From Candidatus Omnitrophota bacterium (lineage in GTDB: Bacteria; Omnitrophota; Gorgyraeia; Gygaellales; Profunditerraquicolaceae), in contig CAWDSS010000010.1 in the NCBI GenBank assembly GCA_963805065.1, positions 856,359-920,358 on the forward strand: 64,000 nucleotides of DNA, given 5' to 3'. Shown piece after piece: positions 781 through 42,444 of this stretch. Under the pieces are notes generated by a model. That model had not been told where the DNA came from. It did not search any database and was given only the letters and a program-made list of their open reading frames with translations. Made by a program: the position numbers and the translations under genes. How positions within the stretch are numbered: the stretch's first letter is position 1; each line of letters starts with the position of its first letter.

Positions 781-1395
781 ATGAAAATAACTAGCCTAGT
801 CATGGTGTTAGCTGTCAGCTGTCAGCTGTCAGCTGTCAGCTGTTTTGCGCAAAGCCAGCCTCTTTTAATTGATGACTTTGAAGGAACTATTTCCGGAGGG
901 CCTGAAGGCACCGTGGATTTCGGTGCAGGAAATGGTTCATCGGTAGATGTAACAGCAGCAACAGATATTCAGCATTCCGGCAAGCAATCCATAAAAGTAA
1001 CATTTGATGCGGTCTCAGGCGGATATATATGGATTGCCCGTGGCTTTGGCTTGGATGCAAAAAACACCGCCTGGTTAATTAAACCAGAAAATATTCCCTG
1101 GAAAGACTATAGTGCAATATCCTTTTATATGTACGGGAACGATTCCAAAACGAAAGTCGCCTTTGACATTAAGGACAACGGAAATGAGATATGGCGTTAT
1201 GTTACAGAGGATAATTTTAAGGGCTGGAAGCAGATAGTTTGTCCGTTTAAAGATTTTGTTGTCCGTGATGACTGGCAGCCGGACAGCGCTGATAAAAATG
1301 CAGTATTAGATTTTCCTTTAAAAAGTTATCAATTTGAACCCAGGCCAGCAGCAAAAGGCACGCTTTACTTTGACCAGGTAGAATTAATAAAATGA
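781..1395 (+). CDS. secreted beta-sandwich protein (CIA30/CBM11-like carbohydrate-binding fold)
   Basis: SD AAGGAGG 6 nt upstream. N-terminal signal peptide ends CFA-Q. DDFEG...YFDQVEL pattern resembles CIA30/CBM-type domains. Confidence 0.5.
   Translation: MKITSLVMVLAVSCQLSAVSCFAQSQPLLIDDFEGTISGGPEGTVDFGAGNGSSVDVTAATDIQHSGKQSIKVTFDAVSGGYIWIARGFGLDAKNTAWLIKPENIPWKDYSAISFYMYGNDSKTKVAFDIKDNGNEIWRYVTEDNFKGWKQIVCPFKDFVVRDDWQPDSADKNAVLDFPLKSYQFEPRPAAKGTLYFDQVELIK
811..843 (+). repeat. (GCTGTCA)x4.7 perfect tandem heptamer array inside the signal-peptide coding region
   Basis: gctgtca repeated 4 times plus gctgt, read directly. Encodes AVSCQLSAVSC. Confidence 0.95.
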
Positions 1396-4376: not shown

Positions 4377-5375
4377 ATGGCTGACCAGGAAAAAATTCTC
4401 AAAGACCAGATTATTAATGTGGGACGCAGGCTTTATGATACAGGCTTGGCAGTAGCCAGGTCAGGCAATATTAGCGCAAGGCTGGATAGTGATAATATTC
4501 TTATCACAGCCACAGGAACATTCCTGGGAGATTTAAAATACGAGGATATCGTAAAAGTAAATTTAGCCACCAATAAAGCAGAATTAGGTAAACCCAGTTC
4601 TGAATTGCCGTTACACGCCCTGATTTACAAAAACTTATCTGCCAAAACAATCATTCATTGCCATCCGCCTTTAATCAACGGGTATTTTGCGGTAAATTCT
4701 TCACTTAAGGCCCTGACTTTTGAAACAAAATTTTATTTAGGAGAAGTACCAGTAATAGAGCAGGATACTCCTACCGTAACCAAGCCGGAATTGGTAATCA
4801 GTGCTTTAAAAACCAATAACCTGGCAGTCTTAAAGAATCACGGAGCAGTTGCCATAGCAGATAAATTTGAAGAGGGATTAAGTTTAGTCGAGGCATTAGA
4901 AGAAGCAGTCAAGACTGCTGCAGTAGCAAGGTTATTTAAGAAAGAAATCCTTGATGATTTGGACAAAGCCCTGAAAGATAATCTTACTAAGGATGAAGTT
5001 GCATATCCTATGTTTTCTAAAGAACATATCCAGGCGATTGTAGATTTGGTAAACCAGGATGAACTTATTGCGCAAAAAGGAAAAGAGCTGGATTTGACCC
5101 TAAAGCTGGCAATTAAACTCGATGAAGAAAACAAGTCTTATAAATTTAATTTTGAAAAGGGTAGGATAGTAAAGCTTGAGCTTGATGATAACGCGCCTTT
5201 TGTAATTTCTGCTCCTAAAGCAGTATGGGAACAGGTATTCCTGGGGAAACTGGATTCTTTTGTAGCTGTAACCCAGGGCAAGATGAAATTGCAGGGCCAA
5301 TTAGGCCAGCTTTCCAAATGGTACGTGCCATTTACTCGGCTTTTTGAATTATTCAAACAGGTTAAATTCCGATGA
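4377..5375 (+). CDS. class II aldolase/adducin-family enzyme (MtnB/Ald2-like) fused to a C-terminal SCP2-like domain
   Basis: N-terminal SGNISAR...ITATG...ELPLHALIY...HCHPP class II aldolase motifs. C-terminal ~100 aa end in VTQGKMKLQGQLGQLSKW, which is SCP2-like. Confidence 0.65.
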   Translation: MADQEKILKDQIINVGRRLYDTGLAVARSGNISARLDSDNILITATGTFLGDLKYEDIVKVNLATNKAELGKPSSELPLHALIYKNLSAKTIIHCHPPLINGYFAVNSSLKALTFETKFYLGEVPVIEQDTPTVTKPELVISALKTNNLAVLKNHGAVAIADKFEEGLSLVEALEEAVKTAAVARLFKKEILDDLDKALKDNLTKDEVAYPMFSKEHIQAIVDLVNQDELIAQKGKELDLTLKLAIKLDEENKSYKFNFEKGRIVKLELDDNAPFVISAPKAVWEQVFLGKLDSFVAVTQGKMKLQGQLGQLSKWYVPFTRLFELFKQVKFR

Positions 5376-6818: not shown

Positions 6819-8324
6819 ATGAACGTTGCCAGCATTTTAGAGACAAAAGCAAAGGCACTCTCTGGTAAGCCCGCCATAATCTTTAAAGACCAGGCTATCA
6901 GCTTCGGGCAATTAAAAGAATATGCATTCAAGCTGGCAGACAGCCTTATAAAACTTGGGCTAAAAAAAGGCGATAAGGTAGCAATATACCTGCCCAATTG
7001 GCCGGAGTATATTTACAGCTATTTAGCTATCTGGTGCTGCGGTGCGACTGCAGTGCCGTTGGATTTCATGCTTACCGACGATGAATTAATGTCCTGTATT
7101 TCCCACTCCGAAGCAAAAATACTTATTGCAAAGCATAAAGCTACACTTTCCTTGCCAAAAATTAAACAAAATTGCCCTCATTTAGAAAAGATTATCTTAT
7201 GTCATGAAATTCAGGAAGGTTGCCAAAGTTTTGAGCAATTAATTGAAAAAGGGAACCCCAAAAATCCGGGAATTAAAATCCAGGATAAGGATTATGCGAT
7301 AATTTTCTACACCTCAGGCACTACTGGTAAGCCTAAGGGCGTACTTATTAACTATCTGCAATTAGATGCTCCGCCCAAGTCTATGGAGTTTTTTGTAGAC
7401 TTGAATTCCTCCGACATTACCTTATGCGCTTTGCCATTTTCTCATTTAGGCGGGCTTATTTACATTCAGAACTGTATTGCTTACGGCTTAACCATTGTTT
7501 TAATGGAACGTTTTATGCCTCTTGAATTCCTGAAAAACATTGAAACTTATAAAATAACCTGTTTCTGGATAGTCCCTTCCATGTATTATGCAGTTTTACA
7601 GTTAAAGGAGTTTGAAAGCTTTGATTTGTCGAGTTTGCGCTGGATTGTCACATTTGGAGCATCCAATTCTCCTGATGCCTTAAGAAGATTCCTGCAATTT
7701 TGCCCTAAGGCGCATCTTTTAAACGGCTGGGGCCTCACAGAGACTAATGCGCCCACCACGGTTTTACCTATGGGCTCAAAAAAAATAGAGAGCGTAGGCA
7801 GGCCTGCTCCCTGGATTGAGGTAAAGATATTTGACGATGCTGATAAAGAGGTAGTGAAAGGAAACATGGGAGAAGTGGTAGTAAAAAGCTGGGTGGTTAC
7901 CGATGGATATTACAAAGACACTGTATTAACTCAAGAGGTTTTGTGCAATGGCTATTTTCATACCGGAGATTTAGGCAGGTTTGACAGCGACGGCCATTTA
8001 TATATCGTGGGCAGGAAAAAAGAAATGATCAAGGTGGGTGGTGAAATTGTTTTTGAGCCGGAAGTAGAATCCGTAATCCATAAACATCCTGATGTCGCAG
8101 AAGTAGCTGTTGTGGGTGTGCCTGATAAATTAAGAGGAGAGGTGCCTAAGGCGTTTATAGTTTTTAAAGAAAATAAAAGTATCCCGGAAGAAGATTTACG
8201 TTTTTTCCTGCGCCAGCATTTAGCGCATTTTAAAATTCCCCATTATTTTGAGTTTAGAAGCTCACTCCCTAAGAACCGCATAGGCAAGATAGACAAAGAG
8301 TCCCTAAGGAGGGACACCCTGTAA
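6819..8324 (+). CDS. AMP-forming acyl-CoA synthetase/ligase
   Basis: YTSGTTGKPKGV (AMP-binding P-loop), TGD and GRKKEMIKVGG motifs. Confidence 0.85.
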   Translation: MNVASILETKAKALSGKPAIIFKDQAISFGQLKEYAFKLADSLIKLGLKKGDKVAIYLPNWPEYIYSYLAIWCCGATAVPLDFMLTDDELMSCISHSEAKILIAKHKATLSLPKIKQNCPHLEKIILCHEIQEGCQSFEQLIEKGNPKNPGIKIQDKDYAIIFYTSGTTGKPKGVLINYLQLDAPPKSMEFFVDLNSSDITLCALPFSHLGGLIYIQNCIAYGLTIVLMERFMPLEFLKNIETYKITCFWIVPSMYYAVLQLKEFESFDLSSLRWIVTFGASNSPDALRRFLQFCPKAHLLNGWGLTETNAPTTVLPMGSKKIESVGRPAPWIEVKIFDDADKEVVKGNMGEVVVKSWVVTDGYYKDTVLTQEVLCNGYFHTGDLGRFDSDGHLYIVGRKKEMIKVGGEIVFEPEVESVIHKHPDVAEVAVVGVPDKLRGEVPKAFIVFKENKSIPEEDLRFFLRQHLAHFKIPHYFEFRSSLPKNRIGKIDKESLRRDTL

Positions 8325-8367
8325 TTCAATCGAGGGACACCCTGTAATTCAAAGCTAAGGGTGTCCC
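8309..8367 (+). repeat. 21-nt direct duplication (GAGGGACACCCTGTAATTCAA x2, 23-nt period) followed by the complementary arm GGGTGTCCC
   Basis: Read directly. Copy 1 contains the acyl-CoA ligase stop codon. Either GGGACACCC copy can pair with GGGTGTCCC (8359..8367). Confidence 0.9.
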
Positions 8368-8381
8368 CATTTATCTTAAAA

Positions 8382-9407
8382 ATGCAAGATATCAAAGAAT
8401 TATCTTTAAAACAATTAGAGAATGTAATTAAGGACTGGGGAAAGCCTGCTTTCCATGCCAGGCAGATATTTGCCTGGATTTATAAAAAAGGCATACAGGA
8501 TTTTAACGAAATGAAAGACTTGCCTTTGGATTTACGAAAACAATTAAAAGATAAATTTAATTTATCTACCTTAAAGTTAATTGAATCCACGCGATCCAGG
8601 GATGGAACAGAAAAGCTGCTTTTGGAATTACCGGACAAAAACCTTATTGAAAGCGTGATTATCCCTGCCGAAGAGCGGGTAACTGGCTGCGTTTCTACTC
8701 AGGCAGGATGTAAATTTGGCTGTTTATTCTGCGCCAGCGGGTTGTCGGGTTTTAAAAGAAACCTGACTACGGCGGAGATAATTGAACAAGCCTTATATTT
8801 AAAGCATAAATCCGCAAATAAACTCACCCACCTGGTATTTATGGGCATGGGAGAGCCGTTGGATAATTACGACAATGTAATCCAGGCAATCCGCACTATA
8901 AATTCTCCCGAAGGCCTGCACATTGGAGCAAGGAGGATAACAGTTTCTACCTGCGGTGTTGTTGCGGGTATAAAAAGATTAGCGCAAGAAGGCCTACAGA
9001 TAGAGCTATCTGTTTCTTTGCATGCCGCAGACGATAAAACCAGGAATCAGATTATGCCGGTTAATAAAAAATATCCCCTTAAAGAACTGATATCAGCCTG
9101 CAGGCAATATTTTAAACAAACAAATCGCCAGGTCACTTTCGAGTACATTTTAATTAAGGGAGTAAATTCTGATTTGCAAAGCGCCAAAAATTTAAGTAAA
9201 ATATTAACAGGCTTGAATTGCAAAATAAACCTCATTCCTTCTAATGCTGTGCCTGAATGCAGGATTGAGCCGCCGAATAAAATGGATATATTGTTGTTTA
9301 AGGATTATCTTGTAAAGCAGAGAGTAAATGTTACTCTCAGGAAGCCGCGCGGCCAGGATATCGAAGCTGCCTGTGGGCAATTGAGGTTAAGATATGTGGA
9401 TAAATAG
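8382..9407 (+). CDS. rlmN: 23S rRNA/tRNA (adenine-C2)-methyltransferase RlmN (radical SAM)
   Basis: FHARQIFAWIY N-terminus, CxxxCxxC cluster (CKFGCLFC), GMGEPL and C-terminal ACGQL. ATG 8382 is preferred; a GTG at 8361 is the alternative start. Confidence 0.85.
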   Translation: MQDIKELSLKQLENVIKDWGKPAFHARQIFAWIYKKGIQDFNEMKDLPLDLRKQLKDKFNLSTLKLIESTRSRDGTEKLLLELPDKNLIESVIIPAEERVTGCVSTQAGCKFGCLFCASGLSGFKRNLTTAEIIEQALYLKHKSANKLTHLVFMGMGEPLDNYDNVIQAIRTINSPEGLHIGARRITVSTCGVVAGIKRLAQEGLQIELSVSLHAADDKTRNQIMPVNKKYPLKELISACRQYFKQTNRQVTFEYILIKGVNSDLQSAKNLSKILTGLNCKINLIPSNAVPECRIEPPNKMDILLFKDYLVKQRVNVTLRKPRGQDIEAACGQLRLRYVDK

Positions 9408-11256: not shown

Positions 11257-12349
11257 TATATGAGCTATCCATTTAAAGAAATCGAAGAAAAGTGGCAGGC
11301 ATATTGGGCAAAACAGGAAGCCTTTAGCGTAAGAGAAGACTCTGCCAGAAAGAAATTCTATCTTCTGGAAATGTTCCCCTATCCGTCGGGAAAAATTCAC
11401 ATGGGCCATGTGCGTAATTATACTATCGCAGATGTTGCAGCCAGATTTAAGATGATGCAGGGGTTTAATGTTCTGCATCCCATGGGTTTTGACGCATTTG
11501 GCCAGCCCGCAGAAAACGCCGCCATAAAAAATAAAACCAAGCCCGATATCTGGACGCATAAATGCATTAACTGGATGCAGCAGGAATTAAAGAAAATGGG
11601 GTTTTCCTATGATTGGGAAAGAGAAGTTTCTACTTGCGACAGCGATTATTATAAATGGAACCAGTGGATATTTTTAAAAATGTTTGAGCGGGGCCTGGCG
11701 TACAAAAAAGCCTCTTCAGTTAATTGGTGCCCTTCCTGCGAAACGACCTTAGCTAATGAAGAGGTAATTGATGGCGGCTGTTGGCGGTGCAAAACCAAGG
11801 TAGAGCAAAAGGATTTGGAACAATGGTATCTAAAGATTACTGAATATAAAGAGCGCTTGTTAGAAGATTTAAAACAACTTAAAGATTGGCCGGAGAAGGT
11901 ATTAGCAATGCAGACCAACTGGATCGGCAAAAGCCAGGGAGTCCAGATATTATTTTCGCCTGAAAGAGGCTAATGCCGTCATACCGGTTTTTACTACCCG
12001 GGTGGATACTATTTTTGGCGCAACTTATATTGTATTAGCTCCGGAGCATCCGTTAGTCAAAGAGATCATTAAAGATAAACCCCAGGAAAAAGAAGTATTA
12101 AAGTTTATCGATAAAGTTGCCAAAGAAAGCAAAGTTGTGCGCACGGCCTCGGATGTTAAAAAAGAGGGAGTTTTTACCGGCGGCTACGCAATAAATCCGG
12201 TTAATAATGAAGAAGTTCCTATCTGGGTTGCTGATTATGTATTAATGGAATATGGTACAGGCGCGATAATGGCTGTGCCCACGCATGACCAGCGGGATTT
12301 TCTGTTTGCCAAAGAACATAAACTGCCGATGCGTATTGTTATCCAGCCT

Positions 12350-12381
12350 CAGAACCCAGAACCCAGAACCCAGAACCCATT
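12350..12381 (+). repeat. (CAGAACC)x4 + CATT heptamer array, in-frame in leuS
   Basis: Read directly. Encodes [11 protein letters not shown]. Identical 32-mer at 27524..27555. Confidence 0.95.
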
Positions 12382-13179
12382 AACTGAAGCCTACGAAGGC
12401 GACGGCATTCAGGTTAATTCCGGACAATTCAACGGGCTTAACAATCAGCAAGCCAAGCTTAAAATTGCCGAATGGATGGAGAAAACCCATATTGGCAAAA
12501 TCCAAACTCATTGGCGTTTACGCGACTGGCTGATTTCCCGTCAGCGTTATTGGGGCACGCCTATCCCAATGATTTATTGTGCGAAATGCGGTATTGTGCC
12601 TGTGCCGTACAAAGACCTTCCGGTAGAATTACCCAAGGATGCCCCTTTTACAGGAGAAGGCGGCAGCCCATTAGCCAAGGTAAAGGAATTTGTTAATGTC
12701 AAATGCCCGAAATGTAATGGCCCAGCTCGCCGGGAAACCGATACCATGGCCACATTCTTTGATTCTTCCTGGTATTTCTTAAGATTTTGTTCTCCTAAGT
12801 TTAATTACGGGCCATTTGATCAAGGTAGCGCAAAATACTGGATGCCGGTTGATCAATATATTGGCGGTATTGAACATGCTATCCTGCATTTATTGTATTC
12901 ACGTTTTTTTACCAAATTTTTTAAAGACTTAGGGCTGATAGATTTTGATGAACCATTCAGGAAATTGTTAACGCAGGGCATGGTATTAAAAGACGGCGAA
13001 GTAATGTCTAAGTCACGCGGCAATATTGTTGACCCGGATTCCATTATTAAGAATTATGGCGCAGATACCTTAAGGTTATTTATTTTATTTGCCGCTCCTC
13101 CTGAAACTGAATTGGAGTGGGATGATCGTGGCATAGAGGGGGCTTTCAAATTCTTAAACCGGGTATGGCGCATTAAAGA

Positions 13180-13211
13180 AAGTCAAAACTTAAAAGCCAA
13201 AAGTCAAAACT
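13180..13211 (+). repeat. degenerate A-rich heptamer array (units TCAAAAC/TTAAAAG/CCAAAAG/TCAAAAC), in-frame in leuS
   Basis: AAGTCAAAACT recurs with a 21-nt period. About 25/30 nt identical to the lnt array at 27982. Confidence 0.8.
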
Positions 13212-13818
13212 CGAATGAAGACGGCTTAATTAAAACCAGAAAGAAAATGCATGAGACTATTAAAGAAGTCAGCGAAGATATAGAGAATTTTAAATTTAAT
13301 ACTGCTATAGCAAGCTTAATGGAATTAGTAAATACCATCTATCAGTTTGGGGCAGATGAGGAAATATTCTCCAAGTTAGTAATCATGCTTAGCCCCATCG
13401 TCCCGCATTTTGCCGAGGAATTATGGCAGAAGCTGGGTAACAAGGAAAGCATCATCCGGGCTCATTGGCCGCAATACGACCCCAAGATGTTGATTGAAGA
13501 AACAGTTACTATTGTAATCCAGATAAACGGCAAACTGCGCTCAAAAATTGATGTTCCCTCAGACATCTCCGAAGAAAAACTTAAGGAACTTGTGTTTGCC
13601 GATGAAAGATTACAGCCCTGGCTTCAGGGGAAACCCCTCAAAAATTTCATCGTAGTCCCCAAAAAACTGGTTAACATAGTAGTCTAAATCCTCTCCTTTG
13701 CCCGGATATTTGCATTTTCATCAGAGTTAGAAGTTTTTGTCCTGCTTAAGATTAATGCATTTTTGCTTAGCCTGCCTTTTGCGTATTTTAGCTTGTAAAA
13801 TTGAATCGGAGCGGGGGG

Positions 13819-13855: not shown

Positions 13856-14803
13856 ATGAAACGCACCCCCTCTATTATTTTAATATTATTTTTCTTTTTA
13901 CTTTCAACGGGTAACGTCTATTCTTATTGGATTTGGACGCCCAAGACAGGCAAATGGGTAAACCCTAAGTACATGGCTAAGCCCAATCCTAAGGAACAGT
14001 TTGAATACGCCAAGGGATTTTACGATGAAAAGAAATATGAAGATGCAAAGCGCGAATTCAAAAGGCTGCTTAAGACATATCCTAAATCTTTCGAGGCTTC
14101 GGAGGGCCAGTATTATCTGGGCCTAATTGATGAGGCACAGGGGAATTCATACGAAGCATTTAAGGCATTTCAGAAGGTTATTGATAAGTACCCTTTTTCC
14201 GAACGGATCCCCGAGGTAATTGAGCAGGAATACAAAATCGCAGAGTCGTTCATGTCCGGGGAAAAACATAAAACCCTAAGCGCAGTTTTAGGAAGCGAGA
14301 ATCCAGCCATAGAGATATTTAATAAGGTTATTGAGAATTCTACCTATGGCCCGTTTGCGCCTAAGGCCCAATATAAATTAGGGTTGGTTTTAAAAGGGCT
14401 CACCCGTTACTATGAAGCTGAGGAGGCGTTTAATAAAGTAATCACGAATTATCCTGACAGCGAGTGGGCAGAGGCATCGAGGTTTCAAATTGCCTTATGC
14501 CGCCAGGCGGTTTCCAAGGGACCGGATTATGACCAGGGCGCAGCGCAGGAGGCAAAACAGAAATTCGAGGAATTCGTAAAAGACCATCCCGAGGCAGCAC
14601 TTTCCAATGAGGCGGGCAAAAACATCAGCCAACTTAATGAAAAAGAAGCAGAAAGTAACTATAGCATCGGGATATTCTATGAAAAACAAAAGCTATATGA
14701 AAGCGCAAAAATTTATTATAATGACGTAGTGAACAATCATCCTGACACTCGTTGGGCAGCTAAGGCGATGGAGAGATTACAGATAATGGAGAAAAAGAAA
14801 TGA
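13856..14803 (+). CDS. bamD: outer membrane protein assembly factor BamD (TPR lipoprotein, YfiO family)
   Basis: Signal peptide, repeated TPR-like YxxAxxxF..YP blocks (FKRLLKTYPKS, FQKVIDKYP, FNKVITNYPDSEW, NDVVNNHPDTRW). Confidence 0.7.
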   Translation: MKRTPSIILILFFFLLSTGNVYSYWIWTPKTGKWVNPKYMAKPNPKEQFEYAKGFYDEKKYEDAKREFKRLLKTYPKSFEASEGQYYLGLIDEAQGNSYEAFKAFQKVIDKYPFSERIPEVIEQEYKIAESFMSGEKHKTLSAVLGSENPAIEIFNKVIENSTYGPFAPKAQYKLGLVLKGLTRYYEAEEAFNKVITNYPDSEWAEASRFQIALCRQAVSKGPDYDQGAAQEAKQKFEEFVKDHPEAALSNEAGKNISQLNEKEAESNYSIGIFYEKQKLYESAKIYYNDVVNNHPDTRWAAKAMERLQIMEKKK

Positions 14804-15366
14804 GAGATTTACGTTTAATGCTTAGAAGAATCATTATTTGCTTCTTTCTTGCGGTTTTTTGTTCTTTTAGCCTTGCTGCATGCGGTTACACTACCCGCTC
14901 TCTGATTACAAACCAATTCAAGACTATTTATGTGCAGCCTTTTGTTAATAAAGTTGACATTACCAATGAAGCTTATCAGGAAAACAGATACCGGATTTAT
15001 AGGCCTACGCTTGAATCCGACGTTACGCAGGCCGTGATAAACAGGTACCTGCTTGATGGAAACTTAAGGCCTGCTAAACAAGAAGACGCGGATCTGGTTT
15101 TAAAAGGAGAGCTTGTTGAGTTTCGCAGGGACCCTCTAAGTTATAGCGATAGTGATACGGTAACAGAGTACCGCTTGAATATCGTGGTTAATCTTACCCT
15201 TTTGGATAAAAAAGAAAATAAAACCCTTTGGAGCGAAAATAATTTTACAGGGGACACCACTTATTTTACTACCGGCGCCAACGCAAAAACAGAAGATACG
15301 GCTATAAATGACGCGCTCACTGATTTAGGCCGCAGAATTGTTGAACGGACAGTCGAGCAGTGGTAG
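14800..15366 (+). CDS. lptE: LPS-assembly lipoprotein LptE-like
   Basis: Lipobox LAACG, ~180 aa. Sits between leuS and holA, as in the conserved leuS-lptE-holA arrangement. Confidence 0.6.
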   Translation: MRDLRLMLRRIIICFFLAVFCSFSLAACGYTTRSLITNQFKTIYVQPFVNKVDITNEAYQENRYRIYRPTLESDVTQAVINRYLLDGNLRPAKQEDADLVLKGELVEFRRDPLSYSDSDTVTEYRLNIVVNLTLLDKKENKTLWSENNFTGDTTYFTTGANAKTEDTAINDALTDLGRRIVERTVEQW

Positions 15367-24013: not shown

Positions 24014-26935
24014 ATGTTAAAATTAATCAGAAAAACAATCCTGGAAAACAAGCAGAAGCGTATCAGGCCAGGTTCCCCGGAGTAAATATTACTTTGCATC
24101 CGGAAATGCCCAATCCTTCCCTGAACAAGATGATAGAATTAAGCCGGATTGTGAATGCCATAAACGTGCTGGAACCTAAAATCAGCGCTCTTTCCGATGC
24201 CGAGCTTAAGGCTAAAACAGCCGGATTTAAAGAACATTGCCTAAAGAGGTCCCGGGAATACGAGCAGGAATTGCAGGAATTGGCAGAGTCGATGATGGCA
24301 GTGGCGATTCCTGAAGAGAAAGAGAAATTAAAGAAAAAAGTCAGGGATGTACGCAATAAAATCTTTGAGGAAATATTACCGGAAGCATTCGCGGTTGTAA
24401 GAGAAGCCTCCAGGCGCACAATTGGTCTTAGGCATTTTGATGTGCAGATGCTGGAGGGGTAGTCTTGCATGAGGGCAGGATTGCGGAGATGGCTACCGGT
24501 GAAGGAAAAACTTTGGTGGCAACTTTGCCTGCCTACCTTAATGCATTATTGGGGCAAGGTGTACATGTAGTTACAGTAAATGATTATCTTGCCCGGCGCG
24601 ACCGCGAGTGGATGGGCCCGATTTATGAATTTTTAGGGCTTTCGGTAGGGGTAATACAGCATGAAATGTCCGATGAGGAGAGAAAAATTGCCTATGCCTG
24701 CGATATAACCTACGGGACAAACAATGAATTCGGTTTTGATTATCTGCGCGACAATATGAAATACGGTTTGAATGATTTGGTGCAGAGGCCTTTCTATTAT
24801 GCAATCGTGGACGAAGTAGATTCCATACTTATTGATGAAGCGCGCACGCCGCTAATCATTTCAGGCCCCGCAGAGGAATCTACGGAAAAATATTACACCG
24901 CCAAGAAAATAGCAGACCAGCTAAGAGGAAGGCGGGTTACTGAAAGAGATCAAATCGATGCCAAATACAAGGGAGAAGATTTATCTAAGGGTTTTGATTA
25001 TCTTGCGGATGAGAAGGCCCAGACAGTAGCTTTAACTGAAGAGGGAGAAATAAAAGCAGCTAAGCTTTGGGGCGTAGAAAGTCTGCATCAGCTAGAGACC
25101 ATAGAATATCGTCACCATACTATCCAGGCCTTACGCGCAAAAGAATTTTTTGAACGGGATGTTGATTATGTGGTTAAAGATGGAGAGGTAATTATAGTCG
25201 ATGAATTTACCGGCCGCATGATGCCCGGAAGGCGCTGGTCAGACGGGTTGCATCAGGCAGTGGAGTCAAAAGAAGGCTTAAAAATCGAACGCGAAAATCA
25301 GACCTTAGCTACTATTACCTTCCAGAATTATTTCCGCATGTATGAAAAATTGGCAGGCATGACCGGAACTGCATTTACCGAGGCAAATGAATTTGAAAGC
25401 ATATACCAGCTGGATGTCGTGGTAGTGCCTACCAATAGGCCCTTAATACGTAACAATTAGCCCGGACAGGGTTTATAAAACAGAGAAGGAAAAATTTAAC
25501 GCTGTAGTAGAAGAAATTGCCGAACATTATAACAATGGAAAGCCCGTCTTAGTCGGTACCATTACTATTGATAAATCAGAGCGGCTTTCCGAAATGTTAA
25601 AAAGGCGCGGGATTACCGCATCAGGTGCTTAATGCCAAGTATCACGAGATGGAAGCGCAAATCGTTGCGCAGGCCGGCAGGTACAAAGCAGTAACTATTG
25701 CCACCAATATGGCAGGCCGCGGAACGGATATTTTATTAGGCGGCAACCCCGAATTCATTGCTAAAAACGTGATTAAACAAAAACTAAAACCAGAAGATCC
25801 TATTTATCAGGAGGAGTATAAAAAACTGCTGGATAAATACAAAAGAGAAACAGAAGAAGAACATAAAAAGGTTGTGGAGTTGGGAGGCTTGCATGTTTTG
25901 GGTACAGAACGTCATGAGGCCCGGCGTATTGATAATCAGCTACGCGGCCGGTCAGGCAGGCAGGGTGATCCTGGGTCATCCAGATTTTATGTAGCATTGG
26001 GAGATGATTTAATGCGTTTGTTTGGTTCTGACAGGCTGATCGGCATAATGGATAAGCTGGGATTAGAGGAAGGCCAGGTTATAGAGCATCCGTGGGTGGC
26101 GCGTTCCATAGAAATGGCGCAGAGGCGCGTAGAACAGCATAATTTTGAAATCAGAAAACAACTCCTGGAGTATGACAACGTTATGAATAAGCAGCGGGAA
26201 ATTATTTATGGCCAGCGTAGACAAACCCTGGAAGGGATTTCTTTAAAGGAAGAAGTAGAAGGGATAATTGAGAGGCTCATTGAAGACACCGTAGCAATTC
26301 ACATTCCAGATAACCAGGAGCCTGATGTGGCGGGTTTAGTAAGTATTATGAATTTGAAATTCGGCCTCGGGTTAGAAGTCCCCAAGATAGAAAATTTAAA
26401 CAAGGCCGATTTGAAAGATAAATTATCAGAAGATACGGTTAGCGCATATAACGAGAAAGAGAAGACAATCGGGACAGATTTGATGCGGCATCTTGAGCGC
26501 ATGGTATTTTTGCAGATTATTGACAGCAAATGGAAGGACCACCTTTATGCAATGGATAGCCTAAAAGAAGGGATAGGTCTACGCGCTTATGGGCAACGCG
26601 ATCCCTTGGTAGAATATAAACGTGAGGCATTTGAAATGTTCAGTCAGATGATTGCTTCTATAGAAGATGAGGCAGTGGAAGCGATATTTAAATTGCAGCC
26701 TCCCAAACAGGAAATATTCCGCGGCGTATTTAGCAGAGCTTCTCAGGAATTAATTCATCCCGAGGCAGTTAAATTCCAGAGGCCGCAAAACGAACCGGAA
26801 GAAATAACTGAAAGCCGGTTGCAGCCACAGTCAGCGCCTGCCTCTATCCCCCAACAATCCCATCCGAAGGTAGGAAGAAACGATCCTTGCCCCTGCGGCT
26901 CAGGCAAAAAATACAAAAAATGCTGCGGAAGATAA
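24014..26935 (+). pseudogene. secA: preprotein translocase ATPase SecA, split into four frames by single-base indels and with an anomalous 5' end
   Basis: Fragments 24094..24462, 24465..25460, ~25458..25632 and 25625..26935 together read as a complete SecA ([20 protein letters not shown] Walker A, C-terminal [14 protein letters not shown] zinc motif). Confidence 0.9.
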
Positions 26936-28434
26936 AACCATTAAAGTTTTGCATATTATCGGCGATCATCCTGGCTTTGCCATATGCGAACGCAAAGTTA
27001 TGGATTTTTGCCTGGTTTGGTTTCCTGCCTTTATTGGCTGCTCTTGCGGGTAAATCTAAACCTAAGGCATTCTTATTATCTTATCTTACGGGAATTATTT
27101 TCTGGACGCTGGTTATTTACTGGTTAGTGCATGTTACATTGCCAGGCACAATTATTCTCATTTTATATTTGGCATTATATTTTGGGATATTTGGCGTTTT
27201 AGTTACGAGCATCGAGCATCGAGCATCGAGCATCCTATTTTTGATTCCAGCCATATGGGTTTTGCTGGAATACGCGCGTTCACATCTATTGACGGGTTTT
27301 CCCTGGGCGCTTTTAGCTTATTCCCAGTATGAGAATTTGCCCATTATACAGATCGCAGATATAACGGGAGCGTGGGGAGTGTCGTTTGTGGTGATGTTAG
27401 TAAATACAACCGTTTATGGGGTTCTAGGTTCTAGGTTCTCGGTTCTAGGAAAAATCAAGAAATGCATACCTGTTTTATTATGTATTATTGTTGTACTTGG
27501 TTATGGATATTATAAGCTTTTGCCAGAACCCAGAACCCAGAACCCAGAACCCATTCGTATATCCGTCATTCAAGGAAACATCCCCCAGGAATTAAAATGG
27601 GACTCTTCCGCCAGGCAATATATTTTAAGCCAATACGCAAGATTAACAAGACAGGCAGCCAAAGACCATCCCGGCCTGATTATTTGGCCGGAAGCAGCCA
27701 GCCCCGGGTTATTAGGAGAAGATGATGCAGTTTTTGAAGAAATTGATTCTTTGGCAAGGAATGTCAAGGTGCCGTTACTCGTCGGAACAGTAGCCAAAGA
27801 CGGCAAGGAATATTTTAACAGCGCCATATTGATTAATCCAAGCGGTGAAATTGCCGCCCGTTACAATAAATTACACCTTGTCCCCTTCGGAGAATACATA
27901 CCTTTAAAGAAATACCTTCCGTTTCTGGAGACTATAGTTCCAATAGGAGATATCACAAGGGGTAAGGAATATACAATATTCCAAAACTTAAAACCTAAAA
28001 CGCAAAACGCGGAAAAATTTGCGGTTTTAATTTGCTTTGAAGATTTATTCCCTGAGCTTTCACGTAAGTTTATTCAGGGGGGGGCTCAATTTTTAGTTAA
28101 TATAACTAATGATGCATGGTATAAGGAAACCTCAGCACCTTATCAACATTTACAGGCATCGGTATTCAGGGCTGTGGAAAATCGCGTATTCTTAGTGCGC
28201 GCTGCCAATACAGGCATTTCCGGGTTTATTGCGCCTAGCGGAAGAATCGTATCTATTGTGCACGGCAAAAGGGACAGAGAAATATTTACCGATGGATACG
28301 AAACCCTGGAGATTCCGCTTCCTATTCCTAAGTCAAGCCCAACTTTTTATAACCGCTGTGGTGATTATTTTGTGTTGATTTGCTTTTTTACTTTTACCTT
28401 TTTGCTTTTACCTTTTAACTTTTTAAAAGATTAA
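26920..28434 (+). CDS. lnt: apolipoprotein N-acyltransferase
   Basis: Multi-TM N-terminal half plus CN-hydrolase domain (WPE, LICFE catalytic Cys, NITNDAW). Confidence 0.85.
27207..27234 (+). repeat. (GAGCATC)x4 perfect heptamer array, in-frame in lnt
   Basis: Read directly. Encodes SIEHRASSI. Confidence 0.95.
27420..27449 (+). repeat. (GGTTCTA)x4 heptamer array (third unit GGTTCTC), in-frame in lnt
   Basis: Read directly. GGTTCTN is the reverse complement of NAGAACC. Encodes [10 protein letters not shown]. Confidence 0.95.
27524..27555 (+). repeat. (CAGAACC)x4 + CATT heptamer array, in-frame in lnt
   Basis: Identical 32-mer to leuS 12350..12381. Encodes [10 protein letters not shown]. Confidence 0.95.
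27982..28016 (+). repeat. degenerate A-rich heptamer array (CAAAACT TAAAACC TAAAACG CAAAACG CGGAAAA), in-frame in lnt
   Basis: Read directly. Homologous to leuS 13180..13211. Encodes [12 protein letters not shown]. Confidence 0.8.
28383..28425 (+). repeat. degenerate T-rich heptamer array (CTTTTAC CTTTTTG CTTTTAC CTTTTAA CTTTTTA) at the lnt 3' end
   Basis: Read directly. Its reverse complement is NNAAAAG, the same family as the A-rich arrays. Encodes [12 protein letters not shown]. Confidence 0.8.
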
Positions 28435-41769: not shown

Positions 41770-42444
41770 ATGGGACAAACAGTTAATGCGGCAAAAAACG
41801 GTAAACGTGTAGTCTTTTTTGACTTTGATAACACAATCTCTACTTTCGATGTCTTTGACGATATGCTGGTTAATTTCTCGCGGAATGACACCTGGAAAAA
41901 GCTGGAAGACAAGTGGAGAAAAGGCTTGATTGGCTCAAGAGAGTGTCTGGAAGGCCAGCTAAAGACCATAAACGTAAGCAGGAAGGTTTTTGATCAATAC
42001 CTCTCTAGGATAAAACTGGACCCTTATTTCGAAAGGCTAATAAAGTTATTTAAGGCAAAAAAAGTCAAGACCGTTATTCTAAGCGACAATTTTGATTATA
42101 TCTTAAACCGTGTATTAAGATATAACGGGTTTAAGAAGCTAAAGGTTTATTGTAATAAGCTAAAATTCAAAAACGATTCGATTACTTACGATTTTCCTTT
42201 TGAGCACAGGAACTGTAAGATCTGCGCTCATTGTAAGACGAAAAATCTCTTGGCAAACAGGAAAGCAGGCTCTATAATGTTCTATATCGGAGATGGGCAT
42301 TCTGATATTTGCCCGGCTGGTCACTGCGACATCATCTTTGCTAAGGAAAGGCTGCTTAGTCATTATAAAGGCAAAAAAACGCCTTGTTTTGCCTATCATA
42401 ACTTAAAAGACGTATATAAGTATTTTAAAAGGAGTTTAGCATGA
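41770..42444 (+). CDS. HAD-IB phosphatase, MtnX-like (2-hydroxy-3-keto-5-methylthiopentenyl-1-phosphate phosphatase family)
   Basis: FFDFDNTIS motif I, SDNFD, Cys cluster CKICAHCK, YIGDGHSD, resembling B. subtilis MtnX as recalled. Confidence 0.55.
   Translation: MGQTVNAAKNGKRVVFFDFDNTISTFDVFDDMLVNFSRNDTWKKLEDKWRKGLIGSRECLEGQLKTINVSRKVFDQYLSRIKLDPYFERLIKLFKAKKVKTVILSDNFDYILNRVLRYNGFKKLKVYCNKLKFKNDSITYDFPFEHRNCKICAHCKTKNLLANRKAGSIMFYIGDGHSDICPAGHCDIIFAKERLLSHYKGKKTPCFAYHNLKDVYKYFKRSLA

Follow-up and report, generated by a model that had tools for sequence, protein, structure and literature searches.

In-frame heptanucleotide arrays at loop positions of lnt in a sub-lineage of Candidatus Omnitrophota

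The apolipoprotein N-acyltransferase gene lnt of a Candidatus Omnitrophota sub-lineage carries tandem arrays of 7-nt units at six recurrent sites, always in an intact reading frame. The arrays of one gene are related to each other in an orientation-specific manner, their units are homogenised at the DNA level, and in-frame stop codons that the units would create are patched differently in different lineages. The analysis started from a 64-kb stretch of one genome, hereafter the window, which is part of a 1.19-Mb Candidatus Omnitrophota contig; its closest Lnt relatives, with 49-71% identity, all belong to Candidatus Omnitrophota. With moderate confidence, we interpret the arrays as in-frame heptanucleotide microsatellites that evolve in concert and not as a designed regulatory element. 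A first-pass annotation of the window had noticed the arrays in lnt; the clade-wide hotspot with six sites, the related units in both orientations and 32 nt in common with leuS go beyond it.

Results

Distribution of the arrays

We took lnt from 79 related genome loci, with flanks of up to 10 kb, and aligned it with lnt of the window, giving 80 genomes and 1.30 Mb of sequence in total. A strong array was defined by at least 19 of 21 period-7 self-matches, with low-complexity sequence left out. Thirty-five strong arrays had a period of 7, compared with three at period 8 and none at periods 5, 6, 9, 10 and 11. lnt makes up 9.4% of the sequence and contained 29 of the 35 (binomial p about 1e-24). 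The loci were retrieved via conserved Lnt peptides and not via arrays, so this enrichment is not an ascertainment effect. All 35 strong arrays, of about 4-5 units each, lay within stop-free frames of at least 190 codons, and the lnt open reading frame (ORF) was intact in 80 of 80 genomes. Six sites of lnt were used recurrently, namely N (at the N-terminus, before the first helix), p1 to p4, and p5 at the C-terminus. At least one strong lnt array was present in 28 of the 80 genomes, and the p1 site showed a periodicity of at least 15/21 in 20. Arrays were concentrated in about one half of an Lnt distance tree, often at 4-5 sites per gene, and the other half had essentially none despite equal loop lengths.

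The units were genome-specific at shared lnt sites, and the protein alignment had 7-residue-periodic peptides of differing sequence at the same sites (TIDYRLSTID, TYNLRLTTYN, RPKTYDLRP and EIRNPESEIRN). Certain units recurred across genomes (ACTGGCG and ACCTACT three times each, ATCCGCT twice), and (TATCCGC)4TAAA was found in p1 of L024 and in p4 of L055, with identical unit, phase and flank at different lnt sites. A metagenome scan for (CAGAACC)3, the unit of p3 in another phase, gave at least 120 matches with 3-11 copies, mostly on unrelated high-GC contigs, and none of the matches listed was in lnt or leuS. This unit is therefore not lineage-specific. The first-pass annotation had named two possible objections to its reading, that relatives have the same peptides without nucleotide periodicity and that the arrays are assembly artefacts. 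The peptides of the relatives differ, and many have a nucleotide periodicity of their own. Equivalent arrays, always in an intact ORF, were present in dozens of independent assemblies from different assemblers, which makes an artefact unlikely. Two independent samples of the closest species were identical, the two contigs carrying P0001 being the same in DNA. The protein clusters of LeuRS and of a CBM_11-domain protein of the window contained the query only, and the Lnt cluster added two unrelated 50-residue entries.

Arrays in lnt of the window

In the window, all five lnt arrays (p1 to p5) are within a single ORF of 515 aa (Table 1). They were located by direct reading and Tandem Repeats Finder (TRF), which confirmed the five arrays of the first-pass annotation; p1, p2 and p3 are perfect or near-perfect and the other two are degenerate. 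Perfect arrays of at least 2.5 units numbered five at period 7 over the window, and none was found at period 6 or at periods 8-15. The arrays of the window are therefore not due to chance. GC skew was uniformly positive, so no origin or terminus accounts for their clustering. The p4 pattern AAAACNNAAAACNNAAAAC occurred nowhere else in the window (0.03 chance matches expected), and p4 was nearly identical in the closest relative, L081 (27/33 nt). p5 encodes the C-terminal tail together with the end of the final membrane helix, and has no counterpart in the relatives, whose tail there is basic (lysine/arginine-rich, cytoplasmic). At 28383-28431, where p5 codes for part of the last helix, Lnt of the window ends in ...FNFLKD in place of this tail.

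The probable start of lnt is the ATG at 26920, as the MLRK start is kept in relatives; the ORF finder lists TTG at 26887, and this longer version is the one in public protein collections. The 5' end of lnt overlaps the last codons of secA, whose stop is at 26935.

Positions of the arrays in the Lnt protein

An AlphaFold (AF2) model of Lnt had modest confidence (mean predicted local distance difference test score, pLDDT, of 65.7), and its secondary structure alone was used for this reason. In the model, p1 to p4 coincide with loops at residues 110-115, 181-188, 212-222 and 367-376, p1 also spanning the end of helix 85-109. The spacer between p2 and p3 corresponds to predicted helix 189-211, just ahead of the first CN-hydrolase strand, and aligns to the pre-nitrilase helix of E. 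coli Lnt. This agrees with the earlier proposal that the spacer codes for the transmembrane helix preceding the CN-hydrolase domain. The p3 linker, residues 212-222, has pLDDT below 50 at residues 213-219. The model and the alignment thus place the arrays in putative loops between helices and between strands, at recurrent alignment positions.

Array-bearing loops are not always longer than array-free ones. Over the 80 genomes, the p1 and p3 loops had equal length with or without a strong array (median 19 versus 19-20 residues), the p2 and p4 loops were longer in array bearers by about 3 and 6 residues, and the N-terminal arrays were net insertions of 9-14 codons. Compared with E. coli Lnt, the p1 loop of the window is two residues shorter and the p3 loop equal, and p2 and p4 are longer by nine and four residues.

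Orientation-specific relatedness of arrays in one gene

The consensus unit of each strong array was probed against the other hotspot regions in its own genome and in the other 79, in both orientations. Probes from p3 matched the reverse complement of p2 at 13.5/21 in their own genome and 10.4/21 in other genomes, and matched p1 directly at 13.1/21 versus 10.2/21. The corresponding values were 11.9/21 versus 9.9/21 for p1 against N in reverse complement, 12.6/21 versus 10.1/21 for p4 against p1 in direct orientation and 12.6/21 versus 10.3/21 for N against p2 in direct orientation. The five p values ranged from 2e-4 to 8e-4 (2e-4 for each of the first four) and rest on about 10-20 array-bearing genomes, which are not phylogenetically independent. 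For p3 against p2, the own genome was among the top 3 of 80 for 7 of 15 probes. The opposite orientations were not significant in this test, and p5 was related to no other site. Comparison of duplex energies within and between genomes was also tried; the within-genome values exceeded the between-genome values for every pair, but GC content confounds this measure, and it was replaced by the orientation-specific probes, whose orientation specificity rules out that confound. On these matches, the arrays of a gene fall into two orientation classes, {p1, p3, p4} and {N, p2}. Units at different sites of one gene match at 5-6 of 7 positions, most clearly in L026, L030, L039, L055, L002 and the window.

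In the window itself, p2 and the reverse complement of p3 match at 6 of 7 positions per unit. The best 21-nt segment matched at 19/21, which none of 500 shuffles reached. The imperfect inverted repeat described in the first-pass annotation therefore stands, and the same relation between p2 and p3 recurs in several relatives. Its second inverted pair, formed by the A-rich p4 and the T-rich p5, is weak (16/21, shuffle p = 0.014) and lies in low-complexity sequence, and the relation was absent from other genomes in the probe test.

Homogenisation of units and patching of stop codons

L081 is 71% identical to the window in Lnt, and has decayed units of p1, p2 and p3 at the same codons, with 9, 14 and 11 of 21 matches where the window has 21, 19 and 21. 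Synonymous sites are saturated at this divergence, yet the window has 29-31 nt without deviation, which indicates recent re-homogenisation in the window. Among the relatives, the p1 units change stepwise (CGAGCAT, CGACTAT, CGACTTA, CAACTTA), and the p3 units, including that of the window, form an A-N-N-A-C-C-C/T series. In four-unit arrays, variants shared by two units were 6-12 times more frequent than expected from independent mutation and were mostly in adjacent units (AABB 29, ABBA 8, ABAB 2). The detection criterion favours AABB, so only the 6-12-fold excess over matched singleton classes was relied on.

The single mismatch of p2 in the window is the C at 27440. The codon there reads TCG (serine), and A at this position would give TTC TAG in frame, as pointed out previously. 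The same would-be TAG of p2 is patched in different ways in different lineages, as TCG in the window, CAG in L002 and TGG in L083 and L005, and L005 also has a TGA-to-TTA change. These differing patches support the earlier suggestion of a repeat that arose at the DNA level and was edited by selection for an open frame. Units containing a stop were found in 8 of 24 cases at N and p2 and in 7 of 50 at p1, p3 and p4 (p = 0.07; random expectation 26%).

The predicted p2/p3 hairpin

Folding of 27400-27580 as RNA pairs p2 with p3 (-50.9 kcal/mol, z = -3.6, 29 pairs). The long mRNA stem proposed in the first-pass annotation is thus predicted for the window, but it is not conserved over the 80 genomes: the mean z of the p2-p3 segment was -0.72 and that of a control segment -0.75, so the stem is not a conserved property of this part of lnt. 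Array-bearing genomes had z of -1.39 and array-free genomes -0.46. When the 29 pairs of the window were projected via the codon alignment, pairing within the own genome was 0.430 compared with 0.398 with other genomes (p = 2e-4). Only four other genomes (L002, L005, L039 and L055) kept at least 70% of the pairs, and the pairing consisted mostly of an invariant GG/CC core with few independent double changes. The mismatches of the stem in the window are A-C and not G-U. No Rfam family reached its threshold; the best was WsnRNA46 with 39.7 bits against a gathering score of 65.3, and the rest were generic hairpins. Sub-threshold matches at 27399-27572, on both strands, were to Wolbachia WsnRNA46 and several plant microRNA precursors. 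RNA scans with relaxed thresholds would mis-flag this locus, and the arrays give strong but probably incidental mRNA hairpins.

Arrays and related repeats outside lnt

In leuS of the window, a surface loop contains an array of the p3 family. A stretch of 32 nt, (CAGAACC)4CATT, is identical in leuS and lnt p3, which are 15 kb apart; unit, repeat phase and 3' flank are the same and the codon phases differ. Relatives with 72-79% identity in LeuRS have a non-periodic loop of equal length at this place, which indicates that the leuS array is recent and overwrote the loop without a change in length. The loop of the window is 3 aa longer than that of T. thermophilus LeuRS. A weak A-rich array (AAAACTT AAAAGCC AAAAGTC AAAACTC, 16/21) is similar to lnt p4 and is found at 13185-13212, where leuS codes for a variable loop; leuS thus has a p3-type unit followed by a p4-type unit, the same order as in lnt. 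leuS of the window is split into ORFs 11260..11973 and 12002..13687 by a 1-nt frame change in a T-rich run at 11940-11975 (...CAG ATA TTA TTT TCG...). The split is probably not real but due to an indel in the assembly. A frameshift induced by an array was considered and rejected as its cause, since the 1-nt indel at the T-run is unrelated to the arrays.

Signal peptides also carry arrays. The array (TGTCAGC)5.4 of the window codes for the hydrophobic signal-peptide core of the CBM_11-domain protein. The three arrays that relatives carry outside lnt (L006, L030 and L061) all fall in the LptE signal peptide, directly ahead of its lipobox cysteine, and this is a second hotspot used recurrently. 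Strong arrays were found in 3 of 9 LptE signal peptides, with units all different, at 259-289 in L006, 197-226 in L030 and 14-83 in L061, the last being two adjacent arrays. The LptE ortholog of the window (14800..15366) has no heptamer array. In L061 the unit CAGGTCT is common to the lptE array and the lnt-N array, 10 kb apart. A lipoprotein theme linking Lnt, LptE and the signal peptide was set aside, because a canonical lipobox is missing from the CBM_11 signal peptide and LeuRS is a cytosolic protein.

A GC-rich palindrome of 20-21 nt, CCTGCCTGCCGGCAGGCAGG (in-frame motif ...LAGRQA...), has copies scattered through several Omnitrophota relatives. Of 27 clear copies, about 12 are in lnt, often embedded in heptamer arrays, and in p1 and p4 of L026 the insert is exactly 21 nt, equal to three units or seven codons. 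Sites in L026 are at 4400, 7064, 10064, 10413, 11234, 11688 and 12324, where intergenic copies are flanked by A-rich heptamers resembling the p4 units of the window. Other sites are L060 10295, L066 10613, L044 9764, L006 10571 and 11162, L015 6658, L003 10669, L030 17924 and L042 11301. No copy of this palindrome was found in lnt of the window.

Elsewhere in the window, a perfect 23-nt tandem duplication, GAGGGACACCCTGTAATTCAATC (1.9 copies), lies at 8309-8352 on the boundary of ORFs 6819..8324 and 8361..9407, and an imperfect 22-nt tandem repeat at 41882-41923.

Table 1. Coordinates of lnt, its arrays and the other heptamer arrays in the window
Feature	Position	Strand	Evidence and context
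lnt (apolipoprotein N-acyltransferase) ORF	26920..28434	+	Pfam LNT_N 3.3e-38, CN_hydrolase 1.3e-32; E. coli Lnt 5vrg E = 8e-45
p1, (CGAGCAT)4.1, perfect	27206..27234	+	TRF 100% matches; loop between membrane helices, 10 residues encoded
p2, (GGTTCTA)4.3, 30 nt, one mismatch (C at 27440)	27420..27449	+	TRF; loop residues 181-188
p2/p3 spacer, about 73 nt	27450..27522	+	last membrane helix before the periplasmic CN-hydrolase domain; predicted hairpin loop
p3, (CCAGAAC)4.4, perfect	27523..27553	+	TRF 100% matches; 10-residue linker from membrane helix to first beta-strand
p4, degenerate, A-rich (AAAACTT AAAACCT AAAACGC AAAACGC)	27982..28010	+	TRF 81-91% matches; loop of the CN-hydrolase domain
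p5, degenerate, T-rich heptamer / 14-mer	28383..28426	+	TRF period 7 81%, period 14 88% matches
leuS array, (CAGAACC)4.3	12350..12379	+	surface loop, 10 residues encoded; p3-family unit
Array (TGTCAGC)5.4	806..843	+	hydrophobic signal-peptide core of a CBM_11-domain protein (ORF 781..1395)

Discussion

Our interpretation of the arrays as microsatellites evolving in concert would involve a copying process that, in one Omnitrophota sub-lineage, rewrites permissive loop-coding stretches into about four tandem 7-nt units (about 30 nt, 10 codons). The stretches rewritten would be the six lnt sites and the LptE signal peptide and, in the genome of the window, also the leuS loop and another signal peptide. 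The process most likely includes replication slippage or conversion between neighbouring units. It most likely also includes short-patch template switching between nearby arrays, with strand switching between inverted arrays (quasi-palindrome correction). We infer this enzymology, and the absence of a function of the arrays, from the patterns described above. Selection would police only the frame, stop codons and loop length. Because 7 and 3 are coprime, an array specifies one cyclic heptapeptide whichever frame is read, and gaining or losing one or two units shifts the frame, so selection locks the copy number while the sequence is homogenised. This explains both why arrays are tolerated in loops and why their copy number is locked near four. 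The C at 27440 would reflect selection against in-frame stops, and the p2/p3 hairpin would result from p2 carrying the p3 unit in inverted orientation.

Several observations weigh against this interpretation. Simple slippage predicts that each in-frame expansion adds seven residues, but at p1, p3 and leuS an array leaves the loop length unchanged. An array growing from one copy to four would have to go through frameshifted stages, and in lnt or leuS these should kill the cell. Nor does loop tolerance explain why lnt and lptE are affected while the flanks contain hundreds of loops and signal peptides that are spared. The identical 32 nt of leuS and lnt are too far apart for ordinary template switching local to a replication fork. 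Furthermore, the same unit, phase and flank at different lnt sites across genomes is more suggestive of a block copied as a whole. A model in which the arrays are mobile or written by an enzyme is kept alive by the rewriting of loops at constant length, by the origin of the four copies via frameshifted stages, by the strong preference for lnt and lptE and by the identical blocks 15 kb apart. A hitherto undescribed DNA overwriting activity of this Omnitrophota sub-lineage is a possibility, although a rather unlikely one. It would be templated, would act on both strands, might be driven by an enzyme and might be linked to the CCTGCCTGCCGGCAGGCAGG palindrome. It would convert about 30 nt of permissive loops in few target genes (lnt, lptE and here leuS) into four copies of a genome-specific heptamer at unchanged length, and would keep inverted and direct copies in step.

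A related explanation is that dedicated, lineage-specific machinery writes or pastes heptamer blocks of about 30 nt, of which the stop-free arrays, open in all frames, survive in genes. We regard it tentatively, as having a low probability. Analogues would be the STRR heptamers and the 21-27-nt small dispersed repeats of heterocystous cyanobacteria, or the in-frame palindromic elements of Rickettsia, all described below. The 32 nt that leuS and lnt p3 have in common but read in different codon phases, together with the array-free leuS of relatives, are consistent with such pasting, as are the unit common to lnt-N and lptE in L061, the repeated use of a limited repertoire of units with identical phase and flank at different lnt sites, the net insertions at the N-terminus, and the confinement of arrays to a sub-lineage with several sites per genome. 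The dispersed CCTGCCTGCCGGCAGGCAGG palindrome, often inside arrays and present as an insert of 21 nt in L026, points in the same direction. However, units differ between the sites of one genome (CGAGCAT, CCAGAAC, TGTCAGC and AAAACNN in the window), p1, p3 and leuS show no gain in length, and (CAGAACC)n is also present in many unrelated high-GC metagenome contigs. The graded series of units at the same p1 and p3 codons indicates descent in situ and not repeated insertion, and no candidate enzyme has been put forward. It is less probable, and in our view doubtful, that p2/p3 and N/p1 stems, in mRNA or single-stranded DNA, are selected as hairpins that modulate translation pausing, membrane targeting or mRNA stability. 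The strong predicted stem of the window argues for this, as does complementarity kept with different units in the window, L002, L005, L039, L055, L083, L026 and L030. Pairing is better within than between genomes, pairs of nearest neighbours in opposite orientation flank membrane segments, and the stop-prone units of p2 make sense only as complements of p3, the difference from the other sites having p = 0.07. Against it, the segment is no more structured than the control over the 80 genomes, with -0.46 in array-free genomes, few other genomes keep the pairs, and beyond the invariant core there are few independent compensatory changes. A change of A to G in each unit would make the stem perfect and at once do away with the stop, but the window has not acquired it and its mismatches are A-C. 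In addition, p1, p3 and p4 are equally related in direct orientation, which a hairpin does not explain, and no Rfam family reached threshold. A better explanation of the stem is that it follows incidentally from p2 repeating the p3 unit in inverted form, and the hairpin may have a function in array-bearing lineages.

Two further explanations appear very improbable. Changes in the number of heptamers shift the frame by +1 per copy, and heptanucleotide simple sequence repeats (SSR) drive phase variation in Haemophilus, so lnt might be a contingency locus switched on and off by frameshifts. We consider this most improbable, as all 80 lnt ORFs are intact, array lengths are quantised at about 4-5 units and not spread, and the affected genes (lnt, leuS and lptE) are housekeeping genes. 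The arrays are also short, which makes slippage rare, and the two independent samples of the closest species were identical. Equally hard to credit is a model in which selection at the protein level favours 7-residue peptide repeats in the Lnt loops and the periodicity in nucleotides is incidental. The arrays do coincide with loops, and the p3 peptides share a P-x-T-x-x-P flavour. Nevertheless, the units are perfectly identical in nucleotides, synonymous positions included, and the peptides differ freely between genomes. leuS and lnt use the same DNA in different codon phases, stop-prone units need patches, and in half of the clade loops of equal length are not periodic. Concerted evolution of in-frame microsatellites thus remains our preferred interpretation.

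The setting of these arrays gives them a wider meaning. In an essential gene, the frame, stop codons and loop length filter and expose the underlying mutational process. The locked copy number, the homogenised and co-evolving direct and inverted copies, and the rewriting of loops at constant length are hard for textbook slippage. A specific activity behind these features, if there is one, would represent a new route by which bacteria diversify protein loops and signal peptides. The arrays also mimic insertions or low-complexity artefacts in alignments of Lnt, LptE and LeuRS from uncultivated phyla. Our literature search gave no report of heptamer arrays for lnt or for Omnitrophota.

Quasi-palindrome mutagenesis by template switching, and concerted evolution of tandem repeats, are known from E. 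coli genetics. In that process imperfect inverted repeats gain complementarity by templated patches, and similarly the variants here spread between adjacent units at unchanged length. Classical quasi-palindromes are single short hairpins with spacers of a few nt and are seen as individual mutations, whereas in lnt four-unit arrays about 75-100 nt apart stay related over long evolutionary spans. A quasi-palindrome mechanism for p2 and p3 might apply by analogy. Rickettsia palindromic elements are said to be in-frame selfish repeats of 100-150 nt with a conserved consensus that add length to the protein. The small dispersed repeats (SDR) of Nostoc are reportedly 21-27 nt long and often embedded in tandem heptamer repeats. 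As with these elements, very short repeats are tolerated here in essential genes at surface or loop positions with the frame intact; unlike the Rickettsia elements, p1, p3 and leuS show no gain in length, while the N-terminal arrays add 9-14 codons and those of p2 and p4 about 3 and 6 residues, and no single consensus is apparent. The reported embedding of Nostoc SDR in heptamer repeats would parallel the CCTGCCTGCCGGCAGGCAGG palindrome inside the arrays of relatives.

Heptamer repeats as such are not new in bacteria. Cyanobacteria reportedly have short tandemly repeated repetitive sequences (STRR). An excess of heptamer SSR in bacteria, for which polymerase slippage was proposed, is described in a passage of PMC4692102 that cites Mrazek 2007, and the GGGAATC repeats of Xanthomonas and GGGGAYT repeats of Nostoc are given in the same source. 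The arrays of Omnitrophota resemble these repeats and STRR in their head-to-tail 7-nt units and in the over-representation of period 7. Occasional inverted pairs, and sequence that varies among close relatives at conserved locations, are further points of likeness. In those systems unit families are common to the sites of one genome; here a common unit was found at two sites of the window (leuS and lnt p3) and of L061 (lnt-N and lptE), and other arrays within the 64 kb covered of the 1.19-Mb contig have different units. Those repeats, however, are overwhelmingly intergenic, variable and often of high copy number, whereas every array here is in an intact ORF with about four copies. lnt is a roughly 50-fold hotspot with six sites, the units are diverse without a G-rich consensus, and the phylum is Omnitrophota. 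The TAACTGA direct heptamer repeats of Beggiatoaceae, Cyanobacteria and Bacteroidetes (MacGregor 2015, PMC4679880) are similar in having 2-6 copies, many sites per genome, a patchy phylogeny and an unexplained mechanism. They differ in having one fixed unit, a few nt upstream of start codons, for which binding of a post-transcriptional regulator was suggested; here the arrays are in coding loops and have many units. Known since 2007, the heptamer excess still awaits a tested explanation, and almost all cases on record are intergenic. The arrays of Omnitrophota lnt are a known type of repeat in an unusual place, with unusual dynamics.

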